In this document: one piece after another, positions 3,201-52,736 of the stretch
Layout: each line of letters opens with the position of its first letter
Numbering within the stretch: position 1 is the first letter of the stretch
Position numbers and translations under genes: made by a program
The notes under the pieces: generated by a model
Database searches by the model: none
Seen by the model: only the letters and a program-made list of their open reading frames with translations
Told to the model about the DNA's origin: nothing
NCBI RefSeq assembly: GCF_963921235.1
Contig: NC_086097.1
Coordinates: 2,232,001 to 2,296,000 of the forward strand
Source of the DNA: Mobula hypostoma
Taxonomy: Eukaryota
Direction of reading: 5' to 3'
Length of the DNA: 64,000 nucleotides

Positions 3201-3381
3201 CAGAACGGCAAAAATATCTCATCCACAATCTCTATCAGAACAGAAGCACCACAGGGATGTGTACTTAACCCCTGACCCTGCTCTACTCACTTTACACCTG
3301 TGACCATGGCTAAGCACAGCGCTAGCACCATTTACTAGTTCCTGACTGCTATGGGCTGTATCAAAGGGGGTGATGAAACAG
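260..3381 (+). mobile_element. Decayed Rex1/Babar-like LINE (RT region) containing an internal 27-bp minisatellite
   Basis: Fragments [79 protein letters not shown] and [16 protein letters not shown], broken by frameshifts and stops. Confidence 0.9.
1068..2921 (+). repeat. 27-bp minisatellite (GTGAYGCRGYGTTCTGAGAGGCTGGTA), about 67 units, five with a 9-bp insert
   Basis: Tandem units are directly visible. 1854 bp = 67x27 + 5x9. Confidence 0.97.
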
Positions 3382-4686: not shown

Positions 4687-7470
4687 CTCTGCTGCAAACG
4701 AGACTCCGGGAGGGTATGTTGCCTCCCTGGTGCAAGGGTCAAGGATGTCTGTGAGCGGCTGCAGGACATTCTGGAGTGGGAGGGTGAACAGCCAGTGGTC
4801 GTGGTGCACATAGGTACCAACGATTTCGGTAAAAAAACGGGATGTGGTCCTACAAGGTGAATTTAGGGAGTTAGGAGATAAACTAAAAAGTAGGACCACA
4901 AAGGTAATAATCTCTGGATTACTACCAGTGCCATGTGCTAGTCAGAGTAGAAATAGGAGGACATGTCAGATGAATACGTGGCTTGAAAATGGTGCAAGGG
5001 GGAGGGATTCAAATTTCTGGGGCATTGGAACCAGTCCTGGAGGAGGTGGGACTGGTACAAACAGGATGGTCTGCACCTGGGCTGGACTGGAACCATTGTC
5101 CTAGGGGGAGCGTTTGCTACTGTTGTTCAGGAGGATTTAAACTAATGTGGCAGGGGGATGGGAACAAGTGCAGAGAGACAGAGGGGTGTAAGATAAGAGT
5201 AGAAGCAAAAAGGTAGTAAGGTGAAAAGTAGAAGTGGCAGGCCGGCAAATCCAGGGCAAAAATCAAAAAGGGCCACTTTTCAATATAATTGTACAAGGGC
5301 TAAGAGTGTTGTAAAAGGTTTTCTCAACCAACATGTCGAGGAATCAACTAGACAGCAGTCATTCTAGACTGGGTATTGAGCAATGAGGAAGGGTTAATTA
5401 GCAATCTTGTTGTGAGAGGCCCCTTGGGTAAGAGTGACCATAATATGGTGGAATTCTTCATTAAGATGGAGGGTGACATTGTTAATTCAGAAAAAAAGGT
5501 TCTGAACTTAAAGAAGGGTAACTTGGAAGGTATGAGACGTGAATTAGCTAAGATAGACGGGTAAATGATACTTAAAGGGTTGACGGTGGATATGCAATGG
5601 CAAGCATTTAAAGATCGCATGGATGAACTACAACAATTGTTCATCCCAGTTTGGCAAAAGAATAAACCAGGGAAGGTAGTGCACCCGTGGCTGACAAGGG
5701 TGATTAGGGATAGTATCAATTCCAAAGAAGAAACATACAAATTAGCCAGAGAAAGTGGCTCACCTGAGGACTGGGAGAAATTCAGAGTCCAGCAGAGGAG
5801 GACAAAGGGCTTAATTAGGAAAGGGAAAAAAGATTATGAAAGAAAACTGGCAGGGAACATAAAAACTGACTGTAAAAGCTTTTATAGATATGTGAAAAGA
5901 AAAAGATTGGTTAAGACAAATGTAGGTCTCTTACAGTAAGAAACAGGTGAATTGATTATGGGGAACAAGGACATGGCAGACCAATTGAATAATTACTTTC
6001 GTTCTGTCTTCACTAAGGAGGACATAAATAATCTTCCGGAAATAGTAGGGGACAGAGGGTCTAGTGAGATAGAGGAACTGAGGGAAATACATGTTAGTAG
6101 GGAAGTGGTGTTAGGTAAATTGAAGGGATTAAAGGCAGATAAATCCCCAGGGCCAGATGGTCTGCATCCCAGAGTGCTTAAGGAAGCAGCCCAAGAAATA
6201 GTGGATGCATTAGTGATAATTTTTCAAAACTCTTTAGATTCTGGACTAGTTCCTGAGGATTGGAGGGTGGCTAATGTAACCCCGCTTTTTAAAAAAGGAG
6301 GGAGAGAGAAACCGGGGAATTATAGACCAGTTAGCCTAACATCGGTGGTGGGGAAAATGCTAGAGTATTGATGGTATTGGTGTGGATAGAGAATTGGTTG
6401 GCAGACAGGAAGCAAAGAGTGGGAATAAACGGGACCTTTTCAGAATGGCGGGCAGTGACTACTGGGGTACCGCAAGGCTCAGTGCTGGGACCCCAGTTGT
6501 TTACAATATATATTAATGACTTAGACGAGGGAATTAAATGCAGCATCTCCAAGTTTGCGGATGACATGAAGCTGGGCGGCAGTGTTAGCTGTGAGGAGGA
6601 TGCTAAGAGGATGCAGGGTGACTTGGATAGGTTAGGTGAGTAGGCAAATTCATAGCAGATGCAATTTAATGTCAATAAATGTGAGGTTATCCACTCTGGT
6701 GGCAAAAACAGGAAAACAGATTATTATCTGAATGGTGGCTGATTAGGAAAAGGGGAGGTGCAACGAGACCTGGGTGTCATTATACACCAGTCATTGAAAG
6801 TGGGCATGCAGGTACAGCAGGCGGTGAAAAAGGCGAATGGTATGCTGGCATTTATAGCGAGAGGATTCGAGTACAGGAGCAGGGAGGTACTACTGCAGTT
6901 GTACAAGGCCTTGGTGAGACTACACCTGGAGTACTGTGTGCAGTTTTGGTCCCCTAATCTGAGGAAAGACATTCTTGCCATAGAGGGAGTACAAAGTAGG
7001 TTCACCAGATTGATTCCTGGGATGACTGGATTTTCATATGATCGACTAGGCTTATACTCTCTGGAATTTAGAAGATTGAGGGGGGATCTTACTGAAACGT
7101 ATAAAATTCTCAAGGGATTGGACAGGCTAGATGCAGGAAGATTGTTCCCGATGTTGGGGAAGTCCAGAACGAGGGGTCACAGTTTGAGGATAAAGGGGAA
7201 GCCTTTTAGGACCAAGCTTAGGAAAATCTTGTTCACACAGAGAGTGGTGAATCTGTGGAATTCTCTGCCACAGGAAACAGTTGAGGCCAGTTCATTGGCT
7301 ATATTTAAGAGGGAGTTAGATATAGCCCTTGTGGCTAAAGGGATCAGGGGTTATGGAGAGAAGGCACGTGCAGGGTTCTGAGTTGGATGATCAGCCATGA
7401 TCGTACTGAATGGCGGTGCAGGCTCGAAGGGCCGAATGGCCTACTCCTGCACCTATTTTCTATGTTTCTA
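4687..7470 (+). mobile_element. CR1 LINE (ORF1 SGNH-esterase part plus ORF2 EN/RT), with two internal deletions
   Basis: ORF1 motifs CCLPGARVKDV and VVVHIGTND. ORF2 motifs [51 protein letters not shown] and HLEYCVQFWSP. Ends in a TTCTATGTTTCTA tail. Confidence 0.95.
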
Positions 7471-7685: not shown

Positions 7686-9200
7686 CTGCTCTACCTTCTT
7701 CAATGTGTTTTGTTACATCCTGAAAGAATTCAATCAGGCTCGTAAGGCACAACCCACCCTTGACAAAGCCATGCTGACTATCCACAAACTTATTATACCT
7801 CTCAAATGCTCATAAATCCTGCCTCTCAGGATCTTCTGCAACAACTTGCCCACTACTGAAGTAAGATTCAAAGGTCTATAATTTCCTGGGTTATCTCTAC
7901 TCCCTTTCTTGAATAAGGAAACAACGTTTTCAACCCTCCCATCCTCCAGTAGATCTCCCTTCCCTGTTGATACTGCTAAGATCATCGCCAGAGGCTCCCT
8001 TGCTCCCCACAGTAGCCTGCAGTATATCTTGTCCAGACCCAGGGACTTACCTAACTTAATACCTTCCAAAAGCTCTAGCACATCCTCTTTCTTAATGTCT
8101 ATATGCTCAAGCATTTCAGTCCAATATAAGTTATCCCCACAATTGCTAGAGTCCTTTTCCCTGGTGAATACTGAAGCAAAGAATTTTTCTTAAGTACCTC
8201 TGCTACTTCCTCCGACTCCATGCACACGTTTCCACTATCACACCTGATTGGTCCTATTCTCACACGGCTCATCCTCTTGCTCTTCACATACTTCAAGATT
8301 CAAAAAGTTCATAAAACTTTATTGTCATTCTAACCATACATTAGCTCTTCAGAGTAGAATGAGACAGCGTTTCCCAGGAGCAGTGCAATCATAACATAAC
8401 AAACACAACACTAAATAATAAACATAACAATAAGTAGTAAATCACAACAGCCACATGTCAGTTAAAATCAAGTTATAAGTGTCCAGTGCAAGTTAAAAGT
8501 GTCCAAAGCAGAGTCAGGTGGAGCAGCTATTTAGCAGTCTGACTGCCTGTGGGAGGAAGCTGTTTAGTAGCCTTGTGGTTTAGTTTTGATGCTCCTGTAA
8601 CGTTTGCCTGATGGCAGAAGAACAAACAGTTCATGGAGAGGGTGTGAGGGGTCTTTAATGAGGTACCGTGTCTTCTGGAGGCATCGACTCTGAAAGAGGT
8701 CTTGGACAGAAGGTAGGGAGACCCCAATAACCTTCTCTGCTCCCCTAACCACCCTCTGCAAGGCTTTTTTGTCGACAGCACTGCAGCTGGAGTACCAGGT
8801 TGTGATGCAAAAGGTCAGCACACTCTCAACCACGCCTCTGTAGAATGTAGTTACGATGTTAGTGGGGAGTGATGCTTGTTTAAGCTTCCTCAGAAAGTGC
8901 AATCCCTGCTGGGCCCGTTTCACAATCCTTGTAGATTGCCTTGGGGTTTTCCTTAATCCTGCTCCCCAAGGACTTCTCATGGCCCCTTCTGGATCTGCTA
9001 ATTTCATTCTTAAGCTCTTTTCTGGCAACCTTGTAATTTTCTAGAGCGCTAACGGTACCTAGTTTCTTGAACCTTTCATAAGCTTTACTTTTCTTCTTAA
9101 TGAGATTTCCTATACATTTTGTACACCTTGGTTCTTTTACCCTACCATCCTTTCCCTGCCTCAATGGAACATACCTATGCAGAACTCTATGCAAATATAA
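7686..9200 (-). mobile_element. CR1 ORF2 fragment interrupted by a Rex1-like insertion
   Basis: Minus ORFs give SRIKENPKA / KYVKSKR...IGP and DNPGNYRPLNLTSVVGKLL. The two halves join across 8294-8927. Confidence 0.85.
8294..8927 (-). mobile_element. 5'-truncated Rex1/Babar-like LINE 3' end
   Basis: IVKRAQQGLHFLRKLK, FYRGVVESVLTFCITTWY and DPSHPLHELFVLLPSGKRYRSI; short-repeat tail near 8294. Confidence 0.88.
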
Positions 9201-12340: not shown

Positions 12341-14120
12341 TGGAAGGATAATCCAGGATAGTGAGGGATAAAATTGGTCCCTTAGAGAATCAGAGTGGAC
12401 GGCTATGTGGGGAGCCAAAAGATATGGGGGAGATTTTGAACAATTTCTTTTCTTCGGTATTCACTAAGGAGAAGGATATTGAATTGTGTAAGGTAAGGGA
12501 AACAAGTAGGGAAGTTATGGAAAATATGCTGATTAAAGAAGAGGAAGAACTGGCACTTTTAAGGAATATAAAAGTGGATAAGTCTCCGGGTCCAGACAGG
12601 ATATTCCCTAGGACATTGAGGGAAGTTAGTGTGGAAATGGCAGGGGCTCTGACAGAAATATTTCAAATGTCATTAGAAACGGGGATGGTGCCAGAGGATT
12701 AGCATATTGCTCATGTTGTTCCATTGTTTAGAAAGGGTTCTAAGAGTAAACCTAGCAATTATCGGCCTGCGAGTTTGACGTCAGTGGTGGGTAAATTGAT
12801 GGAAAGTATTCTTAGAGATGGTATATATAATCATCTGGATAGACAGGATCTGATTAGGAACAGTCAACATGGATTTGTGCGTGGAAGGTCATGTTTGACA
12901 AATCTTATTGAATTTTTTGAAGAGGTTACTAGGAAAGTTGACGAGGATAAAGCAGTGGATGTTGTCTATATGGACTTCAGTAAGGCCTTTGACAAGGTTC
13001 CACACAGAAGGTTAGTTAGGAAGGTTCAATCGTTAGGTATTAATATTGAAGTAGTAAAATGGATTCAGCAGTGACTGAATGGGAGATCCCAGAAAGTGGT
13101 GGTGGATAACTGTGTGTCAGATTGGAGGACGGTGTCTAGTGGTGTGCCTCAGGGATCTGTACTGGGTCCAATGTTGTTTGTCATACACATTAATGATCTG
13201 GATGATGGGGTGGTAAATTGGATGAGTAAGTATGCAGATGATACTAAGATAGGTGGCGTTGTGGATAATGAAGTAGGTTTTCAAAGCTTGCATTGAGATT
13301 TAGGCCAGTTAGAAGAGTGGGCTGAAAGATGGCAGATGGAGCTTAATGCTGATAAATGTGAGGTGCTACATTTTGGTAGGACTAATCAAAATAGGACATA
13401 CACGGTAAATGGTAGGGCATTGAAGAATGCAGTAGAACAGAGGGATCTAGGAATAATGGTGCATAGTTCCCTGAAGGTGGAATCTCATGTGGATAGGGTG
13501 GTGAAGAAAGCTGGCCTTTATAAATCAGAGCATTGAGTATAGGAGTTGGGATGTAATGTTGAAATTGTATAAGGCATTGGTAAAGCCAAATTTGGAGTAT
13601 TGTGTACAGTTCTGGTCACCGAATTATAGGAAAGATGTCAATAAAATTGAGAGAGTACAGAGAAGATTTACTAGAATGTTACCTGGGTTTCATCTCCTAA
13701 GTTACAGCGAAAGGTTGAACAAGTTGGGTCTTTATAGAAGGTTGAGGGGGGACTTGATAGAGGTATTTAAAATTATGAGGGGGATAGATAGAGTTGACGT
13801 GGATAGGCTTTTTCCATTGAGAGTGGGGGAGATTCAAACAAGAGGACATGAGTTGAGAGTTAACAGGCAAAAGTTTAGGGGTAACATGAGGGGGAACTTC
13901 TTTACTCAGAGAGTGGTAGCTGCGTGGAACGAGCTTCCAGCAGAAGTGGTTGAGGCAGGTTCGATGTTGTCATTTAAAGTTAAGTTGAATAGATATATGG
14001 ACAGGAAAGGAATGGAGGGTTATGGGCTGAGAGCAGGTCAGTGGGACTAGGTGAGAGTAAGAGTTCGGCACAGACTAGAGGGGCCGAGATGGACTGTTTC
14101 CGTGCTGTAATTGTTATATG
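12341..14120 (+). mobile_element. 5'-truncated CR1 ORF2 (RT), decayed
   Basis: [60 protein letters not shown] and KYADDTK, with multiple stops. Confidence 0.95.
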
Positions 14121-14904
14121 GAAAACTATCAACCCACCAGTGCAAGTTTGAGTTTACACCCTTATGCTAATAACAATAAAATAAACAATGTTAAAAGCCG
14201 ATTTACTTCAGATTTTCGCATCACCTGCATCCTGGACAGCCTGTCGCACAGTGACTGTATTCACAATAAAGGGCTTGAGTGTATAGTTTAATAATTTTTG
14301 TTGGGTCTTTGTTCATCAGCTGGGTTTAGGAAGGTAGTTGAATTGGAGTTCAAAGATAACCAGAGCTATTAAGCAAATGACCACATCCTTTGGTAAATAA
14401 GACAGCCAAGCCCTATCAGATCGAATGTATCAGGTTACAGGAGAACTTATTTTTTATGGCTATTTAAAGATGTTGTCACAGATGACTCTGTCAGAACCAC
14501 AATGAGCCTATTGTTCATGCAGTATTAAGGCAGCCGAAAGTACTGCATTATTGGAACTGAAATGGTTTATTATTGTCACTGGGCTGAGCTACAGTGAAAA
14601 ACTAGTCTTGCACACATAATTCATTACACAGTGCACTCAGACAGTCCGAGCTAAGAGAATAGCTGAACAAAGTGTAACAGCTACAGAGGAAGTGCAGTAA
14701 GGTGCAAAATCGTAACCAGGTAAATTGTGAGGGGAAGAATCAATGTCATTGTGCTAGGGAGCCATCCAATAGTCCTGTAACCGTGAGGTAGAAGCTGACT
14801 TGAATCTGCTGTACATGCTTTCAAACTTCAGTGTTTTCTGTCCAAAGCCAGAAAGGAGAAGTGAGGCTGTGAGAAGTATAGACAGATGACCATGGAGCAG
14901 AGTC

Positions 14905-15098
14905 AAATCACAAACAAGAGAGAATCTGCAGATGCTGGAAATCCAGAGCAACACACAAAATACTGGAGGAACTCGGCAGCATTGATGGAACGCTGAAACC
15001 CTTCGGGCAGGACAAGTTTCAGTGTGAAACGTTGACAGTACTCTTTTCCATAGATGCTGCCTGGCCTGCTGAGTTCCTCCAGCATTTTGTGTGTGTTC
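14905..15098. mobile_element. Degenerate Penelope-like inverted-arm short repeat
   Basis: Arms ACACACAAAATACTGGAGGAACTC and GAGTTCCTCCAGCATTTTGTGTGT; same family as 20444-20811 and 49899-50162. Confidence 0.7.
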
Positions 15099-16445: not shown

Positions 16446-16559
16446 TATTTATTGCCATAGATTTATATGTACATTTGAACAGTTTGTTGTCTTCTGCATG
16501 CTGGTCAATCTTTCATTGATCCTATTATAGTTATTATTCTATAGATTTGCTGAGTATGT

Positions 16560-17400
16560 TTGCGAAGACAATAACCTATCCCTCAACATCAGCAAGACGA
16601 AGGAATTGGTTGTTGACTTCAGAAGGAGTAGCAGACTGCACGACCCAATTTACATCGGTGGTGCGCAAGTGGAACAGGTCAAAAGCTTTAAGTTCCTCGG
16701 GGTCAATATCACAAATGACCTGACTTGGTCCAACCAAGCAGAGTCCACTGCCAAGAAGGCCCACCAGCGCCTTTACTTCCTGAGAAAACTAAAGAAATTT
16801 GGCCTGTCCCCTAACACCCTCACTAATATTTATAGATGCACTGTAGAAAGCATTATTCTAGGTTGCATCACAACCTGGTATGGAAGTTGTCCTGTCCAAG
16901 ACCGAAAGAAGCTGCAGAAGATCGTGAACACGGCGCTGCACATCACACAAACCAATCTTCCGTCTGTGGACTCACTTTACACCGCACGCTGTCGGAGCAG
17001 TGCTGCCAGGATAATCAAAGACACGACCCACCCAGCCAACTCACTTTTCGTCCCTCTTCCCTCCGGGAGAAGGCTCAGGAGCTTGAAGACTTGTACAGTC
17101 AGATTTGGGAACAGCTTCTTTCCAACTGTGATAAGACTGCTGAACGGATCCTGACCCGGATCTGGGCCATACCCTTCAAATATCTGGACCTGCCTCTCGG
17201 TTTTTTTGCACTACCTTACTTTCCATTTTCCTATTTTCTATTTATGATTCATAATATAAAATTTTAATATTTACTAATTTTTACTATTTTTAATATTTAA
17301 TATTTGTAATCCAGGGAGCAGAAAGCGCAGAATCAAATATCGCTGTGATGATTGTACATTCTAGTATCAATTGTTTGGCGACAATGAGGTATAAAGTATG
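16560..17400 (+). mobile_element. 5'-truncated Rex1/Babar-like LINE 3' portion
   Basis: ORF 16606..17154 VVDFRR..FKFLGV..KKAHQRLYFLRKLK..LPSGRRLRSL..FGNSFFPTVIRLLN; flanking AGTATGT repeat. Same family at 26975-27223 (minus) and 63236-63890 (plus). Confidence 0.9.
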
Positions 17401-17799
17401 TGCAAAGGAAAGCGAAACTCAGGGTTGTATATGGTGACCCTTATGAATAATATGATAATAGAATTTATTTTGAACTTTGAATATAAAAAAGTTCACTCTC
17501 TCGGATTTATGTGAGAAAACTATGGTTTTTTCAACTTGCATTTCTTGAAGCACATGCAGATGACACAGCTCTGCAATACAGACAGATTTCCAGGAATACA
17601 GCCCTCTATAATGTGGGGGTCACCCGTATCCAATTTTTTTAAAAATGGAGATCATAGGGCCAACTGAGTCTATGCTAGCTTTCGAAGTAGTCCCATCTCC
17701 CAACGTTTCCATGCAACCTACGCTCTCCTATTTTCCAACCGACTTCACCTGATGCTACACCCACACTATCTCTGTGGCCAAATAATCTATCAACGATAT

Positions 17800-19110
17800 C
17801 AATCATCGGACAAAGTCAGCATGGATTTGTGAAAGGAAAATCATGTCTGATGAATGTCATAGAACTTTTTGAGGATGTAACTAGTAGAGTGGATAGGGGA
17901 GAACCAGTGGATGTGGTATATTTGGATTTTCAAAAGCCTTTTGACAAGGTCCCACACAGGAGATTAGTGTGCAAACTTAAAGCACACGGTATTGGGGGTA
18001 TGGTATTGATGTGGATAGAGAATTGGTTAGCAGACAGGAAGCAAAGAGTGGGAATAAATGGGACCTTTTCAGAATGGCAGGCGGTGACTAGTGGGATACC
18101 GCAAGGCTCAGTGCTGGGACCCCAGTTGTTTACAATATATATTAATGACTTAGACGAGGGAATTAAATGCAGCATCTCCAAGTTTGCGGATGACACGAAG
18201 CTGGGTGGCAGTGTTTGCTGTGAGGAGGATGCTAAGAGGATGCAGGGTGACTTGGATAGGTTAGGTGAATGGGCAAATTCATGGCAGATGCAATTTAATG
18301 TGGATAAATGTGAGGTTATCCACTTTGGTGGCAAAAACAGGAAAACAGATTATTATCTGAATGGTGGCCGATTAGGAAAAGGGAAGGTTCAACGAGACCT
18401 GGGTGTCATTGTACACCAGTCATTGAAAGTGGGCATGCAGGTACAGCAGGCGGTGAAAAAGGCAAATGGTATGCTGGCATTTATAGCAAGAGGATTCGAG
18501 TACAGGAGCAGGGAGGTATACTGCAGTTGTACAAGGCCTTGGTGAGACCACACCTGGAGTATTGTGTACAGTTTTGGTCCCCTAATCTGAGGAAAGACAT
18601 TCTTGCCATAGAGGGAGTACAAAGAAGGTTCACCAGATTGATTCCTGGGATGGCAGGACTTTCATATGATGAAAGACTGGATGAACTAGGCTTATACTCA
18701 TTGGAACTTAGAAGATTGAGGGGGGATCTTATTGAAACGTATAAAATCCTAAAGGGATTGGACAGGCTAGATGCAGGAAGATTGTTCCTGATGTTGGGGA
18801 AGTCCAGAATGAGGGGTCACAGTTTGAGGATAAAGGGGAAGCCTTTTAGGACCAAAATGAGGAAAAACTTCTTCACACTGAGTGGTGAATCTGTGAAATT
18901 CTCTGCCACAGGAAACAGTTGAGGCCAGTTCATTGGCTATATTTAAGAGGGAGTTAGATATGGCCCTTGTGGCTAAAGGGATCAGGAAGTATGGAGAGAA
19001 GGCTGGTGCAGGGTTCTGAGTTGGATGATCAGCCATGATCATAATAAATGGCGGTGCAGGCTCGAAGGGCCGAATGGCCAACTCCTGCACCTATTTTCTA
19101 TGTTTCTATG
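17800..19110 (+). mobile_element. CR1 ORF2 3' half (TTCTATGT-tail family)
   Basis: ORFs 17829..18545 and 18527..18922 carry RT motifs; highly similar to 25180-26487. Confidence 0.95.
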
Positions 19111-19354: not shown

Positions 19355-20230
19355 GTATCAGGAACATGAGTTGTCAAGTCCTTCCAAGTGAGTCCATAAG
19401 TTGTGGGAACAGTTCAGTGATTTGGGCAAGTGAAGTTGAGTGAAGTTGTCACCTTTGACTGAAGAGCCTGATAGCTGAGGGGTAATAGCTGTTCCTGAAC
19501 ATGGTGGTGTGGGTCCTGAAACTCCTGTACCTCCTCCCTGATGGCAGCAGTGAGAAGAGAGCATGTGAGGCTCCCTGACAATGAATGCTGCTTTCCTGCG
19601 ACAGTGTTTCATGTAGATATGCTCAGTGGTGGGAAGGGCTTTACACATGATGAAATGGTTGTATCTGCTACTTTATGGAGGATTTTCTGTTCAAGAGCAT
19701 TGTTGTTCCTGTAACAGGCTGTCCCCCGATCCAGTCAGACACGTGCGGCAGCTGACTTACAGGACAAACCTCATCCGCCCAGTGTCACCGGTATTTGCAG
19801 AACTCAAAATACCGAGTCTGCTCCACCATTTCATCGTGGTTGACCCATTTCCCTCTCAGCCCCAATCTCCTGCCTGTTCCCCCTGTCCCACACCACCAGG
19901 TTCAGGGACAGTTATTACATCTCAACCATCAGGCTCTTCAACCAGAGGAGTTAACTTCACTCATCCCAACACTGAACCATTTCCACAACCTGTGGACTCA
20001 CTTTCAAGGGCTTTACAACTTATCTTTATTGTTTGTTTATTTATTTTTCTATTTGCCCAGTGGTGTTTTGCACATTTGTTGTTTGTCCATCCTGTTGTGT
20101 ATGGTATTTCATTGATTCTATTGTGTTTCTTTGTAATTACTGTGAATACCCACAAGAAAACGAATCTCAGGGCTGTATATGGTGATATTTATGTATCTTG
20201 ACTATGAATTTACTTTGAACTTTGACTTGA
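19355..20230. mobile_element. Two Rex1-like 3' fragments in opposite orientation (19355-19720 minus; 19895-20230 plus)
   Basis: CACCAGGTTCAGGGACAGTTATTAC...CAACC...TGGACTCACTT on plus mirrors the minus-strand copy. Confidence 0.6.
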
Positions 20231-20444
20231 AGTAAAAACATTTTGCATACATTCAGCAGGGCAGGCAGTGTCTTGGAGAGACAGGAGCAAGCACTTCAGA
20301 TCTGTGTCCTTTAATGGCCAATTAGACTCAAAACATTAAACATGTTTTGTTTACTCTCTTCACAGATATTTACCTGACCCAGAAGTTAAAATTTTTATTT
20401 CATTAGAAGCCATGAGACTAACTAAATGTAAATACAAAATAGCT

Positions 20445-20480
20445 AGTCCTGACGAAGGGTCTCGGCCTGAAACGTCGACT
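20445..20480 (+). ncRNA. Putative minimal type I hammerhead ribozyme
   Basis: AGUC CUGACGA AGGGUCUCGGCCU GAAA C GUC GACU: conserved CUGANGA and GAAA boxes, stem II, stem I AGUC/GACU and a GUC cleavage triplet ending at 20476. Confidence 0.65.
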
Positions 20481-20719
20481 GCACCTCTTCCTACAGATGC
20501 TGCTTGGCCTGCTGCGTTCACCAGCAACTTTGATGTGTGTTGACAAAATAGCCAGAGATGCTGCCTGGCCTGCTGCGTTCACCAGCAACTTTGATGTGTG
20601 ATACTCTGTAGATGCTGGGGCCATAGCAACACTCACAACACGCTGGAGGAACTCAGCAGGTCAGGCAGCATCCTTGGAAACGATCACCTTCTTTATAGGC
20701 CTCTGCCCCTTCCCTCTAC

Positions 20720-20755
20720 AGTCCTGACGAAGGGTCCTGGCCCGAAACGTCGACT
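20720..20755 (+). ncRNA. Putative minimal type I hammerhead ribozyme
   Basis: AGUC CUGACGA A GGGUCCUGGCCC GAAA C GUC GACU; predicted cleavage after 20751. Confidence 0.7.
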
Positions 20756-21489
20756 CATCGTTTCCACAGATGCTGCCTGACCTGCTGAGTTCCTCCAGCG
20801 TGTTGTGAGTGTAACTAAATGTAAACCAGCTCAACATACATCTATCCCTCACTCCAGGTCTGTGATTGACTTTTAAAGTTTTCCCAGGCAAATGGGCAAG
20901 GGCTCACTTCGTAAAATAAACACAGAGTAGCAAAAAAGCTCAGAGCATCTTGGAATAAACTAAAATAGCATCCACAACTGAAGAATACAAAATTACATCT
21001 TGCAGCTGGAATAAACTGCAAGCCTTCAATGTCCTCAAACAATGTCTCTTTCATGTATTGCAAGACTGAGCCCTTGTCAAGTTGTAACATTCTTTTGGGT
21101 AAAGGGGTGACACCACTGGGAGCTGAGGATGGTAACAAGCTGAGCTACCCTGAGCAGGAGAGTTCTGCGATTGATCAGACGCTCTCCTGCGATCATTGCC
21201 TGCTCCTGGCTGGGGAACCTCTCTGTGCCAGTCTGACGAGCACACATACTATCACACTGAACAAGGAGAGTTCAGTGTCTGGCTTTCTTATTCCTTGGAT
21301 CAAATAATATGCTGATATTTCCCATAATCTTTGGCATATGGGTTGTTTGTCAATTTTTCTTTGCGTGTAGTTTTTCATTGATTCTGCTGTATTTCTCTGT
21401 TCTGTGAATGCCAATAAGAAAATAAATCTGAAGGGAGTATACAGTGACATATATGTAATTTGATAATTTTTTTCCGAACTTTGAACTTT

Positions 21490-22944: not shown

Positions 22945-25900
22945 CAGAGAGACAGAGGGGTGTAAAGTGAGGGTAGAAGCAAAAAGTACTAAGGAGAAGA
23001 GTAAAAGTGGCAGGCCGACAAATCCAGGGCAAGCATTAAAAAGGGCCACTTTTCAACATAATTGTATAAGGGCTAAGAGAGTTGTAAAAGAGCGCCTGAA
23101 GGCTTTGTGTGTCAATGCAAGGAGCATTCGTAATAAGGTGGATGAATCGAAAGTGCAGATTGTTATTAATGATTATGATATAGTTGGGATCACAGCTCCA
23201 GGGTGACCAAGGATGGGAGCTCAACGTTCAGGGATATTCAATATTCAGGAAGGATAGACATGAAGGAAGGGGAGGTGGGGTGGCGTTGCTGGTTAAAGAA
23301 GAGATTAACGCAATAGAAAGGAAGGACATAAGCCGGGAAGATGTGGCATCGATATGGGTAGAGCTGTGTAACACTAAGGGGCAGAAGACGCTGGTGGGAG
23401 TTGTGTACAGGCCACTAACAGTAGTAGTGAGGTCGGAGATGGTATTAAACAGGAAATTAGAAATGTGTGCAATAAAGGAACAGCAGTTATAATGGGTGAC
23501 TTCAATCTACATGTAGATTGGGTGAACCAAATTGGTAAAGGTGCTGAGGAAGAGGATTTCTTGGAATGTATGCGGGATGGTTTTTTGAACCAACATGTCG
23601 AGGATCCAACTAGAGAGCAGGCTATTCTGGACTGGGTTTTGAGCAATGAGGAAGGGTTAATTAGCAATCTTGTCGTGAGAGGCCCCTTGGGTAAGAGTGA
23701 CCATAATATGGTGGAATTCTTCATTAAGATGGAGAGTGACATAGTTAATTCAGAAACAAAGGTTCTGAACTTAAAGAGGGGTAACTTGGAAGGTATGAGA
23801 CGTGAATTAGCTAAGATAGACTGGCAAATGACACTTAAAGGATTGATGGTGGATATGCAATGGCAAGCATTTAAAGGTTGCATGGATGAACTACAACAAT
23901 TGTTCATCCCAGTTTGTATAGCTCCTCAGAAGGAGCCATAACATATTTCTTATCAATTTCTTTAATCTTGTCCACAATTGCCATCTCCTCCTGCTTCTGT
24001 TTCTTCCTCAAAGCAACGGAATACGAAATAATCTGACCCCGAATATAGGCTTTAAAAGTGTCCCAAAGAGTGTTAACCGAAATATCTTCTGTATGGTTAA
24101 TTGTAAAAAAAAGCTCAATCTGTTCATTCATAAAATTAACAAAGTCCGAGTCCTGAAGCAACAGCGAATTAAAACGCCATTGTCTATTGTTTGGTATATT
24201 GGCCATAATTTTAATAGAAAGCTTAAGTGGAGCATGATCCGAAATGGTTATAGAATCATAATCACATTTAATCACTGAAGGAATGAGACGAGAATCAATG
24301 AAAAAATAATCAATTCTTGAATAGGAATGATGAACATGTGAAAAAAGGAAAAATCTTTTTCCTAGAGGATGCAGAAAACGCCAAATGTCCGTCGACCCAG
24401 AATCAGAAAGGAAAAAATTAATCAAATTTGCAGATTTATTAGGTAAAGTCCGTAAAGGAGCCGAACGGTCCAAAGCTGGAAATAAACAGGTATTAAGATC
24501 TCCGCCCCAAATCAATGAAAACTCGTTCAAATTCAGAACTCTGCTGAAATTCAGAGTTCAGCAGAGGAGGACAAAGGGCTTAATTAGGAAGGGGAAAAAA
24601 GATTATGAGAGAAAACTGGCAGGGAACATAAAAACTGACTGTAAAAGCTTTTATAGATATGTAAAAAGGAAAAGACTGGTAAAGACAAATGTAGGTCCCC
24701 TACAGACAGAAACAGGTGAATTGATTATGGGGAGCAAGGACATGGCAGACCAATTGAATAATTACTTTGGTTCTGTCTTCACTAAGGAGGACATAAATAA
24801 TCTTCCAGAAATAGTAGGGGACAGAGGGTCCAGTGAGATGGAGGAACTGAGCGAAATACTTGTTAGTAGGGAAGTGGTGTTAGGTAAATTGAAGGGATTG
24901 AAGGCAGATAAATCCCCAGGGCCAGATGGTCTGCATCCCAGAGTGCTTAAGGAAGTAGCCCAAGAAATAGCAGATGCATTAGTGATAATTTTTCAAAACT
25001 CGTTAGATTCTGGACTAGTTCCTGAGGATTGGAGGGTGGCTAATGTAACCCCACTTTTTAAAAAAGGAGGGAGAGAGAAACCGGGGAATTATAGACCGGT
25101 TAGCCTAACGTCGGTGGTGGGGAAACTGCTGGAGTCAGTTATCAAGATGTGATAACATCACCTTTGGAAAGCGGTGAAATCATCGGACAAAGTCAGCATG
25201 GATTTGTGAAAGGAAAATCATGTCTGACGAATCTCATAGAATTTTTTGAGGATGTAACCAGTAGAGTGGATAGGGGAGAACCAGTGGATGTGGTATATTT
25301 GGATTTTCAAAAGGCTTTTGACAAGGTCCCACACAGGAGATTAGTGTGCAAACTTAAAGCACACGGTATTGGGGGTAAGGTATTGGTGTGGATGGAGTAT
25401 TGGTTAGCAGACAGGAAACAAAGAGTGGGAATAAACGGGACCTTTTCAGAATGGCAGGCGGTGACTAGTGGGGTACCGCAAGGCTCAGTGCTGGGACCCC
25501 AGTTGTTTACAATATATATTAATGACTTGGATGAGGGAATTAAATGCAGCATCTCCAAGTTTGCGGATGACACGAAGCTGGGTGGCAGTGTTAGCTGTGA
25601 GGAGGATGCTAAGAGGATGCAGAGTGACTTGGATAGGTTGGGTGAGTGGGAAAATTCATGGCAGATGCAATTTAATGTGGATAAATGTGAGGTTATCCAC
25701 TTTGGTGGCAAAAATAGGAAAACAGATTATTATCTGAATGGTGGCCGATTAGGAAAAGGGGAGGTGCAACGAGACCTGGGTGTCATTATACACCAGTCAT
25801 TGAAAGTGGGCATGCAGGTACAGCAGGCGGTGAAAAAGGCGAATGGTATGCTGGCATTTATAGCGAGACGATTCGAGTACAGGAGCAGGGAGGTATACTG

Positions 25901-26487
25901 CAGTTGTACAAGGCCTTGGTGAGACCACACCTGGAGTATTGTGTGCAGTTTTGGTCCCCTAATCTGAGGAAAGACATCCTTGCCATAGAGGGAGTACAAA
26001 GAAGGTTCACCAGATTGATTCCTGGGATGGCAGGACTTTCATATGAAGAAAGACTGGATGAACTGGGCTTGTACTCATTGGAATTTAGAAGATTGATGGG
26101 GGATCTGATTGAAACGTATAAAATCCTAAAGGGATTGGACAGGCTAGATGCAGGAAGATTGTTCCCGATGTTGGGGAAGTCCAGAACAAGGGGTCACAGT
26201 TTGAGGATAAAGGGGAAGCCTTTTAGGACTGAGATTAGGAAAAACTTCTTCACACACAGAGTGGTGAATCTGTGGAATTCTCTGCCACAGGAAACAGTTG
26301 AGGCCAGTTCATTGGCTATATTTAAGAGGGAGTTAGATATGGCCCTTGTGGCTACGGGGATCGGGGGTATGGAGGGAAGGCTGGGGCGGGGTTCTGAGTT
26401 GGATGATCAGCCATGATCATAATAAATGGCGGTGCAGGCTCGAAGGGCCAAATGGCCTACTCCTGCACCTATTTTCTATGTTTTCTA
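22945..26487 (+). mobile_element. CR1 LINE, nearly complete ORF2 (EN+RT) with frameshifts and an internal L1 patch
   Basis: LCVNARSIRNK, GGGVALLVK, MGDFNL, LGKSDH and a full RT motif set; TTCTATGT tail. Confidence 0.95.
23915..24536 (-). mobile_element. Internal fragment of an L1-clade ORF2 (endonuclease C-half and linker)
   Basis: ORF 23904..24530: WGGDLN..LDRS, DIWRFLHP, FSHVHHSYSRIDYFF, ISDHAP, WRFNSLLLQD and LWDTFKAYIRGQIISY. Confidence 0.92.
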
Positions 26488-29499: not shown

Positions 29500-32240
29500 G
29501 ATGGAAATAGACTGGACTGCGGCTGGCACACAGCTCCTTTTAGAAGCTGCCAGCGAAAAAGGGGTTGAAGTGCCGGTCTGATGGTGCATTAAAAAAAAAA
29601 CAAGGTGTTTACTTCCAATACCAACTTGCTGGCAACCATACAGTCTCTGGTAAATAACATTCACAATCTCAGAGCAAGAGCCCTGTATCAGAAGGACGTT
29701 AGGTATGTGTACGTCCTTTGTTTTATGGAATCTTGGTTAACTCTTTCCATGCCAGACACAGCAATTCAAATAATGGGTTCACAATTCACCGTCAAGATAG
29801 GTCAGTCAAGTCTCTAAAAAGCAGAGGTGGAGGTGTATGCCTCATGATCAACTCCTTGCGGTGTACTATTGTGTTGGTGATGTCCCAATATTGCTTACCA
29901 GACCTGGAATACTTCAGAATTAAGTGCCGGCCATTCTACCAGCAATCTTTTTGGAAGCGGCGTACGTTCCAGGATAATATCAAACTGAGCAATGTAATCA
30001 ACAGGCATGAGACAACACATTCTGACAGCTTCCCCATAGATTTGGGGATTTTAACCAGGCCAGCCTGATAAAGTCACTAAATAATTATTGCCAAGAAATC
30101 ACCTGCAGTACCAGAGGAAATAACACACTGAACCACTGTTACACTAAGTTCAAGAGTGCCTACCGTGTTATCCCACACCTACACTTTGGAAAGTCTGATC
30201 ACCTGTCTGATCTCCTGAGGATAGGCAGAGACTGAAGACTGCAGCACCAGTAGTGAGGACCAAGAAGGTATGGACAAGGGAAGCACAGGAGCGTCTGCAG
30301 GTCTGCTTTGAATCGGTGGACTGGACTGCATGCAGTGATTCATCTTCAAGCCTGGATGACTACGCCACAGTTGTTACCGACTTCATTAAAACCTGTGTGG
30401 ATGAGTGTGTGCCTACCAAAACTTGCTTTACATTCCCAAACCAAAAGCCGTAGATGAACCAGGAGGTTCGTAGTCTGCTGAGAGCTAGATCTCTGGCATT
30501 TAAGTCTAGTGATCCAGGTTTACGCAAGAAAATCAGGTATGATTTGCTGACGGGTATTTCAAGAATGAAGAAACAGTTGCAGAGAAGGTTGGGGGCAACA
30601 TCAGATGCACGTCAACTCTGGCTGGGTTTGCAGGCCAGCACCTCCTACAAAGCAGAACTCAGCATCATGAATGGCAGTGATGCTTCACTACCAGACCAGC
30701 TCAACGTCTTCTATGCTTGCTTTGAAAGGGAGAATGAAGCTACAGCTGTGAGAATCCCTGCAGCATCTGACGACCCTGTGATCTCTGTCTTGGAGGCTGA
30801 CATCAGGCTGTTTTTCAAGAAGGTGAACCCTTGCAAGACAGCAGGCCCGATGGAGTATCTGGTACAGCCCTGAAATACAGTGTTACAGTCAGAAGTTCCC
30901 ACCTACTTCAAAAGGGCCACAATTATACCAGTGCCGAAGAAGAGCAGCCTTAATGACTATCGCCCAGTAGCACTCACATCTACGGTGATGAAATGCTTCG
31001 AGAGGTTGGTTATGACCAGACTGAACTCCTGCCTCAGCAAGGACCTGGACTCACTGCAACTTGCCTACTGCCACAATAGGTCTACAGCATACCAATGTCA
31101 GGATGCTGTTCACTGACTACATCTCAACATTTAACACCATTACTCTAAAGACCCTGACTGAAAAGCTACAGAACCAACACCTCTGTACCTCCCTCTGCAA
31201 CTCTATCCTCAACTTCCTAACAGGAAGACCGCAATCCACGTGGGTTGCAAATAACATCTCCACCTTGCTGACAATTAACACTGGAGCTCCACAGGGGTGT
31301 GTGCTTAGCCCAGTGCTCTACTCTCTCTACAAATCTGACTGTGTGGCTAGGCATAGCTCAAACAGCACCTATAAACTTGCTAATGACACAACCATTGTTG
31401 GCAGATTTCAGATGGTGACAAAAGAGCATACAGGAGCGAGATATACCAGCCAGTTGAGTGGTGTCACAGCAACAACCTGGCACTCAAGGTCAGTAAGATG
31501 GAAGAGCTGATTGTGGACCTCAGGAAGGGTAAGATGAGGGAACACATACCAATCCTCATAGAGGGATCAGAAGTGGAGAGAGTGAGCAGTTTCAAGTTCC
31601 TGGGTGTCATTATCTCAGAGGACTTAACCGGGACGCAACATATTAATGCAGCCACAAAGAAGGCAAGGCAGTGGCATTAGGAGTTCGAAGAGATTTGCCT
31701 TGTCACCTAAAACACTGGAAAACTTCCACAAATGTACCGCAGAGAGCATTCTGATAGGCTGCATCGCTGTCTGGTAGGGGAGGCTAAGGTATAAGATCAA
31801 AATAAGTTGCAGAAACTTGTAAAATTATCCAGCTCCATCATCGGTGCCAGCTTCTGTAATATCCAAGACATTTTCAAGGAGCGGTACCCAAGGAAAGCGA
31901 TGTCTATCATTAAGGATCCCCCACCACCCAGGGCATGCCCCCTTCACACTGCTACCATCGGTAAGGAGGTACACACTCAGCGATTCAGGAACAGCTTCTT
32001 CCCCTCTGCCATCCGATTCCTAAATGTACATTGAACCCCCGAACACTATCTCAATACTTCTTTTATTTCTGTTATTTTGTATTACCTATTTTAACTTAAC
32101 TATTTAATAGACATATATATATATATATATATATATATGCTTATATATCTCTCTACTTATCATGTATTTCATTGTACTGCTGCTGTAACGTTAACAAATT
32201 TCATGACATATACCCGTGATGTTAAGCCTGATTCTGACTT
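29500..32240 (+). mobile_element. Near full-length decayed Rex1/Babar-like LINE (EN+RT)
   Basis: [72 protein letters not shown] and QRFRNSFFPSAIRFLN; GATTCT tail. Confidence 0.92.
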
Positions 32241-33670: not shown

Positions 33671-35163
33671 CGTATAAAAATTATTCACCCCCTCCAGTCC
33701 ACCCTGGAAGTTTTCATGTCTTATTGTTTTACAACATTGAATCATAGTAGATTTAATTTGGCTTTTTTGACACTGAAAAAGATTCTTTCGTGTCAAAGTA
33801 AAAACAGATCTCTACAAAGTGATCCAAATTAATTACAAATATAAAACACAAAATAATTGATTGGATAGGTATTCACCCCCTTCAAGTCAGTATTTACTAG
33901 ATGCACCTTTGGCCTTGAATCTGTGTGGAAAGGTCTCTATCAGCTTTGCACGTCTGGACACTGCAATTTTCCCCCATTCTTCTTTACAAAATTGCTCAAG
34001 TTCTGTTAGATTGCATGGGGATCGTGAGTGAACAGCTCTTTTCAAGTCCAGCCACAAATTCTCAATTGGATTGAGGTCAGGACTCTGATATGACACTCCA
34101 GAACATTAACTAAGTTGTTTTTAAGCCATTTCTGTGTAGCTTTGGCTTTATGCCTGAGGTCATTGTCTTACTACAAAACAAATCTTCTCCCAAGTCGCAG
34201 TTCTCTTGCAAACTGCATCAGGTTTTCCTCCAGGATTCCCCTGTATTTTGCTGCATTCATTTTATCTTCTACCTTCACAAGCCTTGCAGATCCTGCTGCA
34301 GTAAAGCATCCCCACAGCATAATGCAGCCATCAATATGCTTCACAGTAGGGATGGGGTGCTTTTGATGATGTGTGGTGTTTGCCTTACACCAAACACAGC
34401 ATTTAGTCTGATGGCCAAAAAGCTCAATTTTGGTTTCATCACACTATAGAACCTTCTTCCAGCTGACTTCAGAAGTCTCCCACATGCCTTCTGGCAAACT
34501 CTAGTCAAGATTTCATGTGAGTTTTTTTTTTGAACAGTGGCTTTCTCTTTTCCACTCTCTGATAAAGCTGCGACTGGTGAAGCACCCGGGCAACAGTTGT
34601 TAAATGCACGGTCTCTTCCATTTTAGCCATTGAAGCTTGTAACTCCTGCAGAGTTGTCATAGAGCTCTTGGTGGCCTCCCTCACTAGCTCCCTTCTTGCA
34701 CGGTCACTCAGTTTTTCAGAATGGCCTGCTCTAAGCAGATTTACAGCTGTGCCATATTCTTTCCAGTTCTTGATTGACTTAACAGTACTCCAAGGGAAAT
34801 TCAGTAATGGAAATTTTCTTGTATCCATCTCCTGACTTGTGCTTTTCAATAACCTTTTTGCAAGTTGCTTTTAGCTTCCTGGTGTAATTTTTGTCAGGAT
34901 AATGACTCACCAGCAGTTGGACCTTCCAGATACAGGTGTATTTTTACTACAGTCAATTGAAACACCTTAACTGCACACAGGTCTCCAAAAACAGATCTCC
35001 ATTTAACTAATTATGTGACTTCTAAAACCAATTGGCTGGACCAGTGATGATTTGGTGTGTCATATTAAAGGGGCTGGATACTTATGCAATTATTTTGTGT
35101 TTTATATTTGTAATTAGATCACTTTGCACAGATCTGTTTTCACTTTTACACAAGTCTTTCTGT
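33671..35163 (-). mobile_element. Tc1-like DNA transposon relic (defective transposase)
   Basis: Minus ORFs: QSPDLNPIENLWLDLKRAVH..NLTELEQFCKEEW and PWSTVKSIK..KLSDRARRELVREATK..TLQELQ. Inverted repeats at about 33770-33880 and 35060-35160. Flanked by CA/TA microsatellite on both sides. Confidence 0.92.
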
Positions 35164-35631: not shown

Positions 35632-35760
35632 ATCCTGCTGAAGGGTCTCGGTCCAAAACATCGACTGTACTCTTTTCACAGAAGCTGCCTGGCCTGCTGA
35701 GATCCTCCAGCATTTTGTGTGTGTTGCTTGGATTTCCAACATCTGCAGATTTTCTTTTGT
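35632..35760 (+). mobile_element. Penelope-like short repeat, mutated hammerhead core
   Basis: CCTGCTGAAGGGTCTCGGTCCAAAACATCGACTG...GCTGCCTGGCCTGCTGAG. Further decayed copies at about 35950-36030, 40866-40950, 41335-41435 and 61885-62075. Confidence 0.7.
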
Positions 35761-48537: not shown

Positions 48538-48713
48538 AAAAACATCACCCAACTCCGTAGCACACCATCAATTTAAAATACAATAAAACCCCATTAAAAA
48601 CATCACCCAACTCCCTGACACACTGTCCATTTAAAATACAATAAAACTCCATTAAAAACATCATCCAACTCTGTAGCACACGTCGATTTTAAATACAATA
48701 AAACCCCACTAAA
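48538..48713. repeat. 58-bp minisatellite (3 units; a 4th unit at 52372-52435 beyond a CR1 insertion)
   Basis: AAAAACATCACCCAACTC..CACAC..TC.ATTTAAAATACAATAAAACCCCATT; unit starts spaced 58 bp apart. Confidence 0.9.
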
Positions 48714-52368: not shown

Positions 52369-52736
52369 CTAAACAACATCACCCAACTCTGTGGCATACC
52401 ATCGATTTAAAATACAATAAAACCCCCATTAAAAAGTTCAGCAGAGGCAGGTGAAGACTAGCGCCATGTTCACATTGAACATGGTGGTTTCAGTGAACAA
52501 GGCTTGCTAACTGAACAAAGTGTGGTTAATGCCATACTTTATTTATGACAAAACACAAGAGCTAGTGACAGAATGACTCTACAAAGCAACCGAAGAAAAC
52601 AGTCTCTCAAAACATGAGAATGGCCCAAGAACATAGAATGAAATTTGACGACCTTTCCAGAGGAGGGGAGGAGGGAGATGCAGCAGAAAGACGCAAATGA
52701 CCAACAGACAGAAATACATGCCATGATAATGAGGGG

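Follow-up and report, generated by a model that had tools for sequence, protein, structure and literature searches.

Two hammerhead ribozyme motifs that stand close together on one strand of this Mobula hypostoma DNA belong, very probably, to a stack of about three insertions from an abundant retroelement family that behaves in the manner of Penelope-like elements (PLEs): the family leaves severely 5'-truncated, 3'-terminal fragments carrying genuine motifs, and the pair is then not a selected unit. The window, by which we mean the whole 64,000-nt stretch that was analysed, holds two 36-nt minimal type I hammerhead motifs, HHR1 and HHR2, with the following parts:

20445-20480, plus strand: HHR1; helix I 20445-48/20477-80, plus the wobble U20444-G20481
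HHR1 core: CUGACGA 20449-55, extra A 20456, helix II 20457-60/20465-68, GAAA 20469-72, ACGU 20472-75
after C20476, plus strand: predicted cut of HHR1
20720-20755, plus strand: HHR2; helix I 20720-23/20752-55
HHR2 core: CUGACGA 20724-30, extra A 20731, helix II 20732-35/20740-43 (G10.1-C11.1), GAAA 20744-47, ACGU 20747-50
after C20751, plus strand: predicted cut of HHR2

The two same-strand cores had been seen in an earlier note on this DNA, and the cut sites predicted here are the ones it gave, 20476 and 20751. In HHR1 the boxes follow in the order AGTC, CTGACGA, A, GGGTCTCGGCCT, GAAA, CGTC and GACT; HHR2 has the same boxes with GGGTCCTGGCCC in helix II, so that the two are 92% identical over 36 nt at a start-to-start spacing of 275. 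All core positions (C3 U4 G5 A6 N7 G8 A9, G12 A13 A14, A15.1-U16.1 and H17) are present in both motifs, as is a type I topology with a helix I of 5 bp including the wobble (HHR1) or 4 bp (HHR2), a helix II of 4 bp with a tetraloop and one unpaired A after A9. The palindrome ACGU takes the place of helix III in each case and allows trans pairing of two motifs. HHR1 exhibits G10.1-U11.1 (CCTGAAA) where HHR2 and other family copies have G-C (CCCGAAA): judged from the sequence, this G-U is a CpG-type C>T change.

The pattern CTGANGA-N(6-30)-GAAACGTC was found twice on the two strands of the 64 kb, compared to 0.00 matches in 100 dinucleotide shuffles. A minimal-hammerhead descriptor, a kind of check that had been suggested, asked for the core boxes, for helices I and II of 3 bp or more each, for a helix III that is palindromic and 0-6 nt long, and for U-H; it returned exactly HHR1 and HHR2, against a mean of 0.005 and a largest value of 1 in 200 dinucleotide shuffles. 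The Rfam check that had also been suggested was negative: the whole window gave no match at the gathering score, and with E up to 10 no hammerhead family appeared for a 551-base stretch (20350-20900) and two 66-base stretches (20430-20495, 20705-20770), these permissive scans giving only weak miRNA, snoRNA, CRISPR-repeat and twister-fragment matches that reflect inverted repeats. The Rfam hammerhead models include a helix III hairpin, which would explain the miss; Hammerhead_1 and its relatives have the catalytic core and type I topology in common with the motifs, but are without a match here.

Minimal type I hammerheads sit in the pseudo-LTRs (pLTRs) of metazoan PLEs (Cervera and de la Pena 2014, PMC4209133). 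The features published there for PLE minimal hammerheads are all present, in agreement with the type to which the motifs had been assigned. They comprise the CUGANGA and GAAA boxes, a helix I as short as 4-5 bp, one nucleotide left unpaired between A9 and 10.1, a G10.1-C11.1 pair (G-U in HHR1) and a helix III made of A-U plus a palindromic C-G; shared as well are a massive genome-wide occurrence, mainly of lone motifs in truncated copies, strongly heterogeneous sequences, and dual motifs spaced by 100-700 bp. Differences from the motifs in that paper are seen in helix II, which has 4 bp and a tetraloop here compared to 6-8 bp in schistosome and Drosophila PLE motifs, and in the nearby dual motifs, which lie on opposite strands there and on the same strand here; furthermore, the flanking RT/EN ORF of PLE minimal hammerheads was not found within the 64-kb window. 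By these sequence features, HHR1 and HHR2 are genuine minimal hammerhead motifs of the dimer type, for which cleavage sites are predicted.

The composite in which both motifs lie is bounded by a 14-bp direct repeat and its left unit by a 10-bp direct repeat, each as the earlier note had described, and the focal locus (20419-20825) has the following layout:

20419-20432: outer target-site duplication, left, TAACTAAATGTAAA, 14 bp, exact match to 20812-20825
20434-20443: inner target-site duplication, left, ACAAAATAGC, 10 bp, adjoining the left end of the 99-bp unit
20444-20542, plus strand: left unit, a 99-bp 5'-truncated A-type copy with HHR1 and a short-class 3' end, nested insertion
20543-20552: inner target-site duplication, right, 10 bp
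20556-20602, plus strand: A', an A-type copy cut to its last 47 nt, without hammerhead; 45 nt are 98% identical to 20495-20539
20603-20685, minus strand: inverted 5'-truncated B-type arm, its long-class 3' end pointing left, stopping just short of the hammerhead
20686-20811, plus strand: direct B-type arm with 34 nt upstream of the motif, HHR2 and a short-class 3' end
20812-20825: outer target-site duplication, right, 14 bp

The loose ends of family contigs from run X1 coincide exactly with 20444 (174 'before' records) and 20542 (406 'behind' records), and since the 10-bp repeat abuts these independently defined family boundaries, the left unit is a nested insertion, as had been proposed. It is 86-90% identical to other A-type copies (BLAST). 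About 13 nt of filler that does not belong to the family (20433 plus 20543-20555) stand ahead of A'. The two B-type arms include an inverted repeat (20624-20684/20757-20817) of 61 nt with 93% complementarity and have the private variant CGTGTTGTGAGTGT in common (alignment A2); the loose ends show family contigs extending leftward past 20698.

The motifs belong to a dispersed, CpG-decaying repeat family that is very abundant. Eight full motif copies were found in the 64 kb in addition to partial ones, i.e. about one motif copy per 8 kb, and the tail 20-mer, with as many as 3 mismatches allowed, matched 11 times in the window, compared to 0.02 expected. An 801-base stretch was matched by 111,996 contigs from DNA run X1 and 75,667 from X5 (second organism label); the summed contig depth, at 1-9 million over the repeat versus ~10-60 on the flanks, is not a copy number. 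Two further runs of contigs, guessed to be RNA, gave no cover over the unique flanks, which speaks neither for nor against transcription. A variant table of the contigs was rejected as a conservation test, since its depth is dominated by consensus-like k-mers and it took in only contigs at least 90% alike. The degenerate motif pattern had no loci in metagenome contigs or in viral contigs and the tail pattern had none in metagenome contigs, so that all copy comparisons rest on the window's own 9 copies. A search of the main texts of papers for motif and tail strings gave only two unrelated papers. Family copies are short (about 50-200 bp), end without poly(A) or microsatellite and fall into two discrete 3'-end classes. 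Beyond the focal locus, they comprise:

14903-15097: B-type inverted pair; long-tailed reverse arm, short-tailed direct arm, partial hammerhead halves only
35633-35755, plus strand: solo family copy; decayed core (CTGCTGA; G12>A), long-class tail
40869-40950, plus strand: family copy; decayed core (G12>A)
41335-41440, plus strand: family copy; decayed core (C3>T), 466 nt from the copy at 40869-40950 on the same strand
49899-50162: A-type inverted pair; a decayed hammerhead in each arm, reverse arm long-tailed, direct arm short-tailed; 88 nt, 92%
61904-62080: old diverged inverted pair; 56 nt, 73%; direct arm with CTGATGA but U16.1>C

Insertions of this family are extremely truncated on the 5' side; an inverted truncated copy adjoins them, a 3' tail may be present but on one arm only, and the target duplications measure 10-14 bp. 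There are three clear inverted pairs (14903-15097, 20603-20811 and 49899-50162), with flanking repeats of 13-14 bp, besides the old one at 61904-62080: the first is flanked by a 13-bp repeat (14890-14902/15098-15110, 12/13 identical) and the last of the three by an exact 14-bp duplication (49885-49898/50163-50176), its insertion breaking a LINE ORF. The reverse arm has the long 3' end and the direct arm the short one in all three clear pairs (alignment A2). Anchor-to-end lengths are 69 and 98 nt for the long class and 38-48 nt for the short class (38, 44 and 46 among the pair arms); an internal deletion blocks this measurement in the long arm of the 14903 pair, which was classed from alignment A2. 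The tail lengths differ by 25-60 nt, a range wider than the published 30-40 bp and drawn from only three clear pairs.

For PLE insertions, 5' truncation, an adjacent inverted truncated copy and an optional 30-40-bp tail at one end have been described, and complex tandem and inverted structures from one cycle of transposition have been noted (Craig et al. 2021, PMC8557442). The asymmetry of long and short arms, which we had considered as a new feature, is already described in that paper and was rejected as such. In vitro, an anole PLE uses two RT start sites and cleaves both strands (Frangieh et al. 2024, PMC11167929), and the inverted pairs with a tail on one arm are consistent with being genomic footprints of these two activities. 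The two papers have in common with our findings the inverted pairs with 13-14-bp duplications, the long 3' end on one arm only, the two 3'-end classes downstream of the hammerhead and the placement of new copies beside old ones; in contrast to the architecture described there, the extensions here are 25-60 nt, the arms, at 47-126 bp, are far shorter than a pLTR-ORF unit, and the focal locus shows no partial tandem (pLTR), that is, no head-to-tail repeat, as is expected for fragments so short.

A PLE-type RT/GIY-YIG ORF is absent from the 64-kb window: none of its 150 ORFs of at least 85 aa matched a GIY-YIG family, and no GIY..YIG-like string occurs in its six frames. Eight frames matching RVT_1 were translated, and the catalytic box kept in five of them is FADD throughout, which we take to be LINE-like; the window carries several LINE-type RT and APE fragments. 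Given that no PLE ORF is found in the window, the assignment to PLEs is drawn entirely from motif type and insertion architecture. These LINE fragments and the shortness of the copies would also suit a family with no relation to PLEs, namely an independent short hammerhead-bearing element of SINE-like nature (the Sm-alpha type of schistosomes) mobilised by the window's abundant LINEs. We regard such an origin as very improbable: the lack of a poly(A) or microsatellite 3' end, the two discrete 3'-end classes, the adjacent inverted truncated copies and the hammerhead without helix III together form the published signature of PLEs rather than of LINEs or SINEs (PMC4209133; PMC8557442). Even more doubtful, to the point of being extremely improbable, is the idea that there is no ribozyme at all and that an imperfect repeat hairpin matches the hammerhead boxes by chance. 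The predicted MFE structure of each motif is in fact a plain extended hairpin, and neither an Rfam match nor covariation among the window copies speaks for a ribozyme; however, every hammerhead that lacks a helix III loop brings with it the alternative GANG/CGUC pairing, the descriptor expectation is 0.005 per window, and the published minimal motif is matched at all 11 core positions, by the extra nucleotide that follows A9 and by the palindrome in place of helix III.

For the stack itself, we propose source elements that would be either autonomous PLEs or short non-autonomous derivatives, with a hammerhead that presumably processes RNA as a dimer between tandem units, a role taken from the literature. 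A 47-nt A-type end (A') would first have inserted with the 14-bp target duplication; a B-type inverted pair, consisting of the reverse arm and the HHR2-bearing direct arm, would then have landed at the 3' end of A', and a 99-bp A-type end with HHR1 would finally have come in immediately upstream, making a separate 10-bp duplication, an order of three events that we infer. The same-strand spacing of 275 nt would be a by-product of PLEs inserting into or beside earlier copies, with no selected unit, and the focal copies would be dead-on-arrival fragments. Of the two stacked insertions put forward earlier, the stacking and the composite bounded by the 14-bp duplication stand, and the number becomes about three. 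The outer 14-bp duplication encloses A' too, and the three-event order needs a B pair that inserted with hardly any target duplication, or none.

A single integration with template switches, from the B RNA to its own cDNA or a second priming and on to the A RNA, could instead have made everything between the 14-bp duplications except the nested 99-bp unit. We consider this unlikely. In its favour, the filler, A', reverse B and direct B are together enclosed by one exact duplication of 14 bp, the B pair is without a separate flanking duplication, its arms have private variants in common, and complex tandem and inverted structures per PLE cycle are on record (PMC8557442). However, A' lies in direct orientation with a canonical short 3' end against the 3' end of reverse B, which priming at the left nick would not yield, and A' and B derive from different subfamilies. 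In a further rival reading the pair might act as the double hammerhead of the earlier note, in which a plus-strand transcript would form helix III in trans from ACGU/ACGU, be cut after 20476 and 20751 and release a 275-nt retrozyme-like RNA that may circularise. Both cores are intact, lie on the same strand at a distance of 275 nt and are the only intact ones among the window's 8 full copies; dimeric action is the published model for minimal hammerheads (PMC4209133), and in vertebrates non-LTR retrozymes measuring 51-972 bp have been reported and connected with PLE pLTRs (bioRxiv 10.64898/2026.07.22.740005). We nevertheless hold this reading to be very improbable, on grounds of both the interval and the fold. 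There is no tandem repeat, and the interval shows no relation to the sequence on either side. The predicted MFE of the two motifs as monomers is -13.7 and -12.5 kcal/mol for an inactive hairpin, in which the core GACG is paired with CGUC, compared to -7.7 and -8.5 kcal/mol for the active-compatible fold; pairing of the two ACGU palindromes in trans would contribute only -1.7 to -3.1 kcal/mol, and across three transcript contexts the active-compatible form of both motifs carries a penalty of +9.3 to +15.0 kcal/mol, so that the predicted folds disfavour the proposed double hammerhead by 9-15 kcal/mol, although such energies are a thermodynamic prediction and not decisive. Moreover, HHR2 is enclosed by the 61-bp, 93% inverted repeat. 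Lunse, Weinberg and Breaker are said to have reported in 2017 that PLE hammerheads cleave as dimers. The in vitro activity published for such dimers is low (PMC4209133), and the PAc hammerhead site was without RNA-seq read starts or ends (PMC11167929).

Non-LTR retrozymes of animals (PMC7229834; 2026 preprint) likewise have two same-strand type I hammerheads that lie a few hundred nt apart and could excise the interval, and an evolutionary link between them and PLE pLTRs has been proposed (Li, Clavereau and Pollet 2026 preprint). The same preprint (bioRxiv 10.64898/2026.07.22.740005) defines retrozymes operationally by TRF repeats with at least two consecutive HHR-bearing units. Whereas a non-LTR retrozyme repeats a single homologous unit head to tail, the focal interval is a patchwork of three fragments; the hammerheads of the classical examples (Cervera and de la Pena 2020, PMC7229834) are canonical ones that make loop-loop contacts, in contrast to the minimal type seen here. 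No two consecutive homologous units in tandem, each with a complete hammerhead, were detected, TRF giving 0 rows for 20200-21100 (minimum score 30, period up to 500). The 275-nt interval, which had been likened to a retrozyme monomer, has 174 and 168 identical columns with the next and previous 275 nt, respectively, while shuffles have a mean of 161 and a largest value of 173: a similarity at the shuffled level, the two units having only ~82 nt in common, the motif and the head of the tail. That the locus is a birth snapshot of a retrozyme-like unit, put together by chance stacking, so that a 275-nt patchwork RNA could be cut out of a host transcript and closed into a circle, strikes us as highly improbable; if true, it would display the kind of starting material assumed in the proposed origin of non-LTR retrozymes from PLE ends.

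A hammerhead pair formed by the stacking of truncated PLE ends is a known and ordinary pattern, and the locus adds one more genome with minimal hammerheads on Penelope-type fragments, at high density, which is of little importance in itself. Since stacked truncated PLE ends yield such pairs as a by-product, annotation pipelines should accept two intact hammerheads lying close together as 'active retrozymes' only where the interval is truly a repeated unit. Covariance-model annotation will in turn miss this very abundant ribozyme-like repeat, because the Rfam models do not see the motif class at all.

The CpG observed/expected ratio of the window is 0.32. Cores are broken in 6/8 full copies, leaving HHR1 and HHR2 as the only intact ones; the lesions are G12>A in three copies (one of which also has A6>C), G8>A, C3>T plus G16.2>C, and U16.1>C, and the four G>A core changes fall at CpGs. 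Preferential conservation and stem covariation, which had been suggested as a check, did not emerge over the 9 window copies: 73.9% of helix cells are paired compared to 74.4% in shuffles, the covariation score is 0.207 in both, and no preferential core conservation is present, with CpG-overlapping core positions hit repeatedly; being composed of few, dead copies, this set says little about the source element. The family copies show neutral decay, and both focal cores are intact because these copies lost few CpGs. Both intact cores of the window stand at one locus, which a functional reading would predict too.

Two minimal type I hammerhead motifs of 36 nt, 92% identical and 275 nt apart from start to start, lie on the plus strand at 20445-20480 (HHR1) and 20720-20755 (HHR2). 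Both are ordered as a 4-nt AGUC helix I strand, CUGACGA, an extra A, helix II, GAAA, CGUC and GACU: helix II is G+C-rich, with 4 bp and a tetraloop (its base in HHR1 being G-U in place of G-C), helix III consists of the palindrome ACGU and nothing more, and the core (C3-A9, G12-A14, A15.1/U16.1, C17) is complete. A strict motif pattern matched 2 times, where 100 shuffles gave 0.00, and a relaxed structural descriptor, custom-written for this analysis and run over both strands of the 64 kb, picked out these two sites and no others (200 dinucleotide shuffles averaged 0.005): the two same-strand cores 275 nt apart described in the earlier note are present as claimed and are the sole descriptor sites in the window. 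The motif shows the features listed for minimal hammerheads of Penelope-like elements (PLEs) in Cervera and de la Pena (2014, PMC4209133).

The motif is borne by a dispersed repeat family with two subfamilies, A and B, distinguished by the stretch following the motif. Family boundaries were read independently, as the points where paralogous contigs stop matching (loose ends), which resolves the focal locus into:

20444-20542: left unit, 99 bp, carrying HHR1 and reaching 66 nt past its predicted cut site
20556-20602: A', the final 47 nt of an A-type copy, to the right of the left unit
20603-20685, reverse orientation: B-type arm
20686-20811, direct orientation: B-type arm with HHR2

The 10-bp repeat ACAAAATAGC abuts the left unit exactly at both ends, and thus the unit is a genuine nested insertion bounded by its own repeat, as had been proposed; an exact 14-bp duplication flanks the entire composite, and repeat comparison of the locus recovered both of these direct repeats. 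About 13 nt of non-family filler precede A', which matches the equivalent stretch of the left unit at 98% identity. The focal B arms are complementary at 93% across 61 nt and have private variants in common that are absent from other B copies, so they derive from one template. That three fragments are stacked within 393 bp, through insertions whose number and order we infer, is explained by the tendency of PLEs to insert into or beside earlier copies, as stated in a review (PMC6765202). A further two same-strand family copies, 40869-40950 and 41335-41440, lie 466 nt apart with both cores decayed, and therefore same-strand pairs arise repeatedly by clustering.

Two further clear inverted pairs of the family (a reverse arm adjoining a direct arm), each with a flanking target duplication, were identified in the window:

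14903-15097: inverted pair, flanking 13-bp repeat, 12/13 identical
49899-50162: inverted pair, flanking exact 14-bp repeat, within a LINE ORF

In alignment of the family copies in the window, the reverse arm carries the long and the direct arm the short 3' end in all three clear pairs, the focal one included. Measured from a fixed anchor where this could be done, long arms extend 69 and 98 nt and short arms 38-46 nt; over all copies, the 3' ends are of two classes, one short and the other roughly 25-60 nt longer. These truncated inverted pairs and one-arm long 3' ends fit the pattern already in print for PLEs, for which Craig et al. (2021, PMC8557442) describe heavy 5' truncation, a 5'-truncated inverted copy immediately adjoining and a tail of 30-40 bp, often at one end alone. 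For an anole PLE, Frangieh et al. (2024, PMC11167929) found that the protein cleaves and extends both strands and that reverse transcription has two internal start sites whose spacing corresponds to the tail. On every structural criterion that can be tested, the locus is a group of minimal hammerhead fragments of PLE type.

In long-tailed copies, such as 35680-35755 and the reverse strand of 49899-49996, the tail starts with a AGATGCTGG-like sequence and its far end is CCAGCATCT; these are reverse complements, so the full tail could form a hairpin that short-ended copies lack, a candidate RNA element for recognition at two RT start sites.

The proposal that the pair acts as a 275-nt retrozyme-like unit found no support, and several results count against it. 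TRF detected no tandem repeat in 20200-21100 at scores down to 30; the 275-nt interval matches the next and previous 275 nt in 174 and 168 identical columns (shuffled mean 161, maximum 173), and only about 82 nt are common to the two units. As the Methods of a 2026 preprint define non-LTR retrozymes operationally by a TRF repeat in which two or more consecutive units bear a hammerhead, the focal locus lies outside the retrozyme class as defined. The predicted folds are also unfavourable: the lowest-energy monomer of each motif is an inactive extended hairpin (-13.7 and -12.5 kcal/mol, versus -7.7 and -8.5 for the catalysis-compatible fold) in which core GACG pairs with CGUC, because G5-A6-C7-G8 is complementary to C15.2-G16.2-U16.1-C17 in both (20451-20454 with 20473-20476; 20726-20729 with 20748-20751). 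The trans ACGU helix is predicted to contribute just -1.7 to -3.1 kcal/mol, and forcing both motifs into active-compatible folds in three transcript contexts to cost 9.3 to 15.0 kcal/mol, although these are equilibrium predictions with which in vivo cleavage remains compatible. They are in line with PMC4209133, which reports that minimal-hammerhead dimers have low activity in vitro, and with PMC11167929, in which no RNA-seq reads end at the hammerhead of the anole PLE. Such a built-in competitor pairing is present in any hammerhead without a helix III loop and may be one reason why the reported activity of the minimal class is low.

Inverted repeats of the stacked fragments join 20624-20684 with 20757-20817 and 20552-20580 with 20649-20677. 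In the transcript MFE, the two B arms pair as a long stem enclosing HHR2; any transcript would fold as a near-perfect 61-bp hairpin around HHR2, a potential dsRNA or small-RNA substrate. The long inverted repeats also account for weak miRNA-like Rfam matches (mir-3173: 26 bits, gathering score 84).

The family is clearly very abundant. With up to 3 mismatches allowed, a 20-mer downstream of the motif has 11 matches in the window (0.02 expected), and BLAST with inspection gave 8 full-length motif copies and further partial ones. One DNA run contributed 111,996 public contig records matching 20200-21000, and another, from a second organism, 75,667; the summed contig depth, which is not a copy number, was in the millions on the repeat versus roughly 10-60 on unique flanks. 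Thousands of minimal hammerhead copies in fishes, coelacanth, frogs and reptiles, and nearby dual motifs, are already reported in PMC4209133; a search of paper main texts did not find the family sequence itself in print.

All six non-focal full-length motif copies have broken cores. Four breaks are G>A at CpGs (G12>A in three copies, G8>A in one) and the remainder are C3>T, G16.2>C, U16.1>C and A6>C; CpG observed/expected in the window is 0.32, a strong depletion. Helix pairing over 9 aligned copies, all from this one window, as for all copy statistics, occurred in 73.9% of cells versus 74.4% in shuffles, with no covariation signal. On these sequence patterns, the dispersed copies decay neutrally; the two focal motifs are intact because each lost just one CpG-type position.

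None of the 150 ORFs of at least 85 aa in the window matched a GIY-YIG family. Eight RVT_1-matching frames were translated: the catalytic box is kept in five, always as FADD, which we take to be a LINE trait, and absent in three, and APE-type endonuclease domains lie just upstream in two of the RT elements. We infer the linkage of the family to an autonomous PLE, a short non-autonomous derivative being an equally possible source.

The window is essentially a retroelement graveyard. The LINE at 48619-52451 has a GDSL-esterase-like ORF, an APE-type endonuclease and an RT (FADD), with one in-frame stop (51255-51257), and is split by the inverted pair at 49899-50162, beyond which its reading frame picks up again, restored by the 14-bp target duplication (..IMDKD..). 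The window also contains at least seven other fragments of LINE-type RT or APE and a Tc1/mariner-type element domain:

3339-4319: LINE-type RT or APE fragment
6335-6640: likewise
12703-14047: likewise
17691-18542: likewise
23378-26413: likewise
31025-31507: likewise
44240-44776: likewise
34508-34870, minus strand: Tc1/mariner-type HTH

A Pfam ALKBH8_N match follows several LINE-type fragments (8567-9040, minus; 16531-17151, plus). A 27-bp minisatellite at 1068-2925 (about 67 copies), open in several frames on both strands, gives rise to long ORFs and a Reb1_MybAD Pfam match that are all spurious, and a 7.7-kb satellite array at 53776-61516 (period 35 bp, about 222 copies, 91% matches) explains why GC and AT skew are strong across 52-62 kb.
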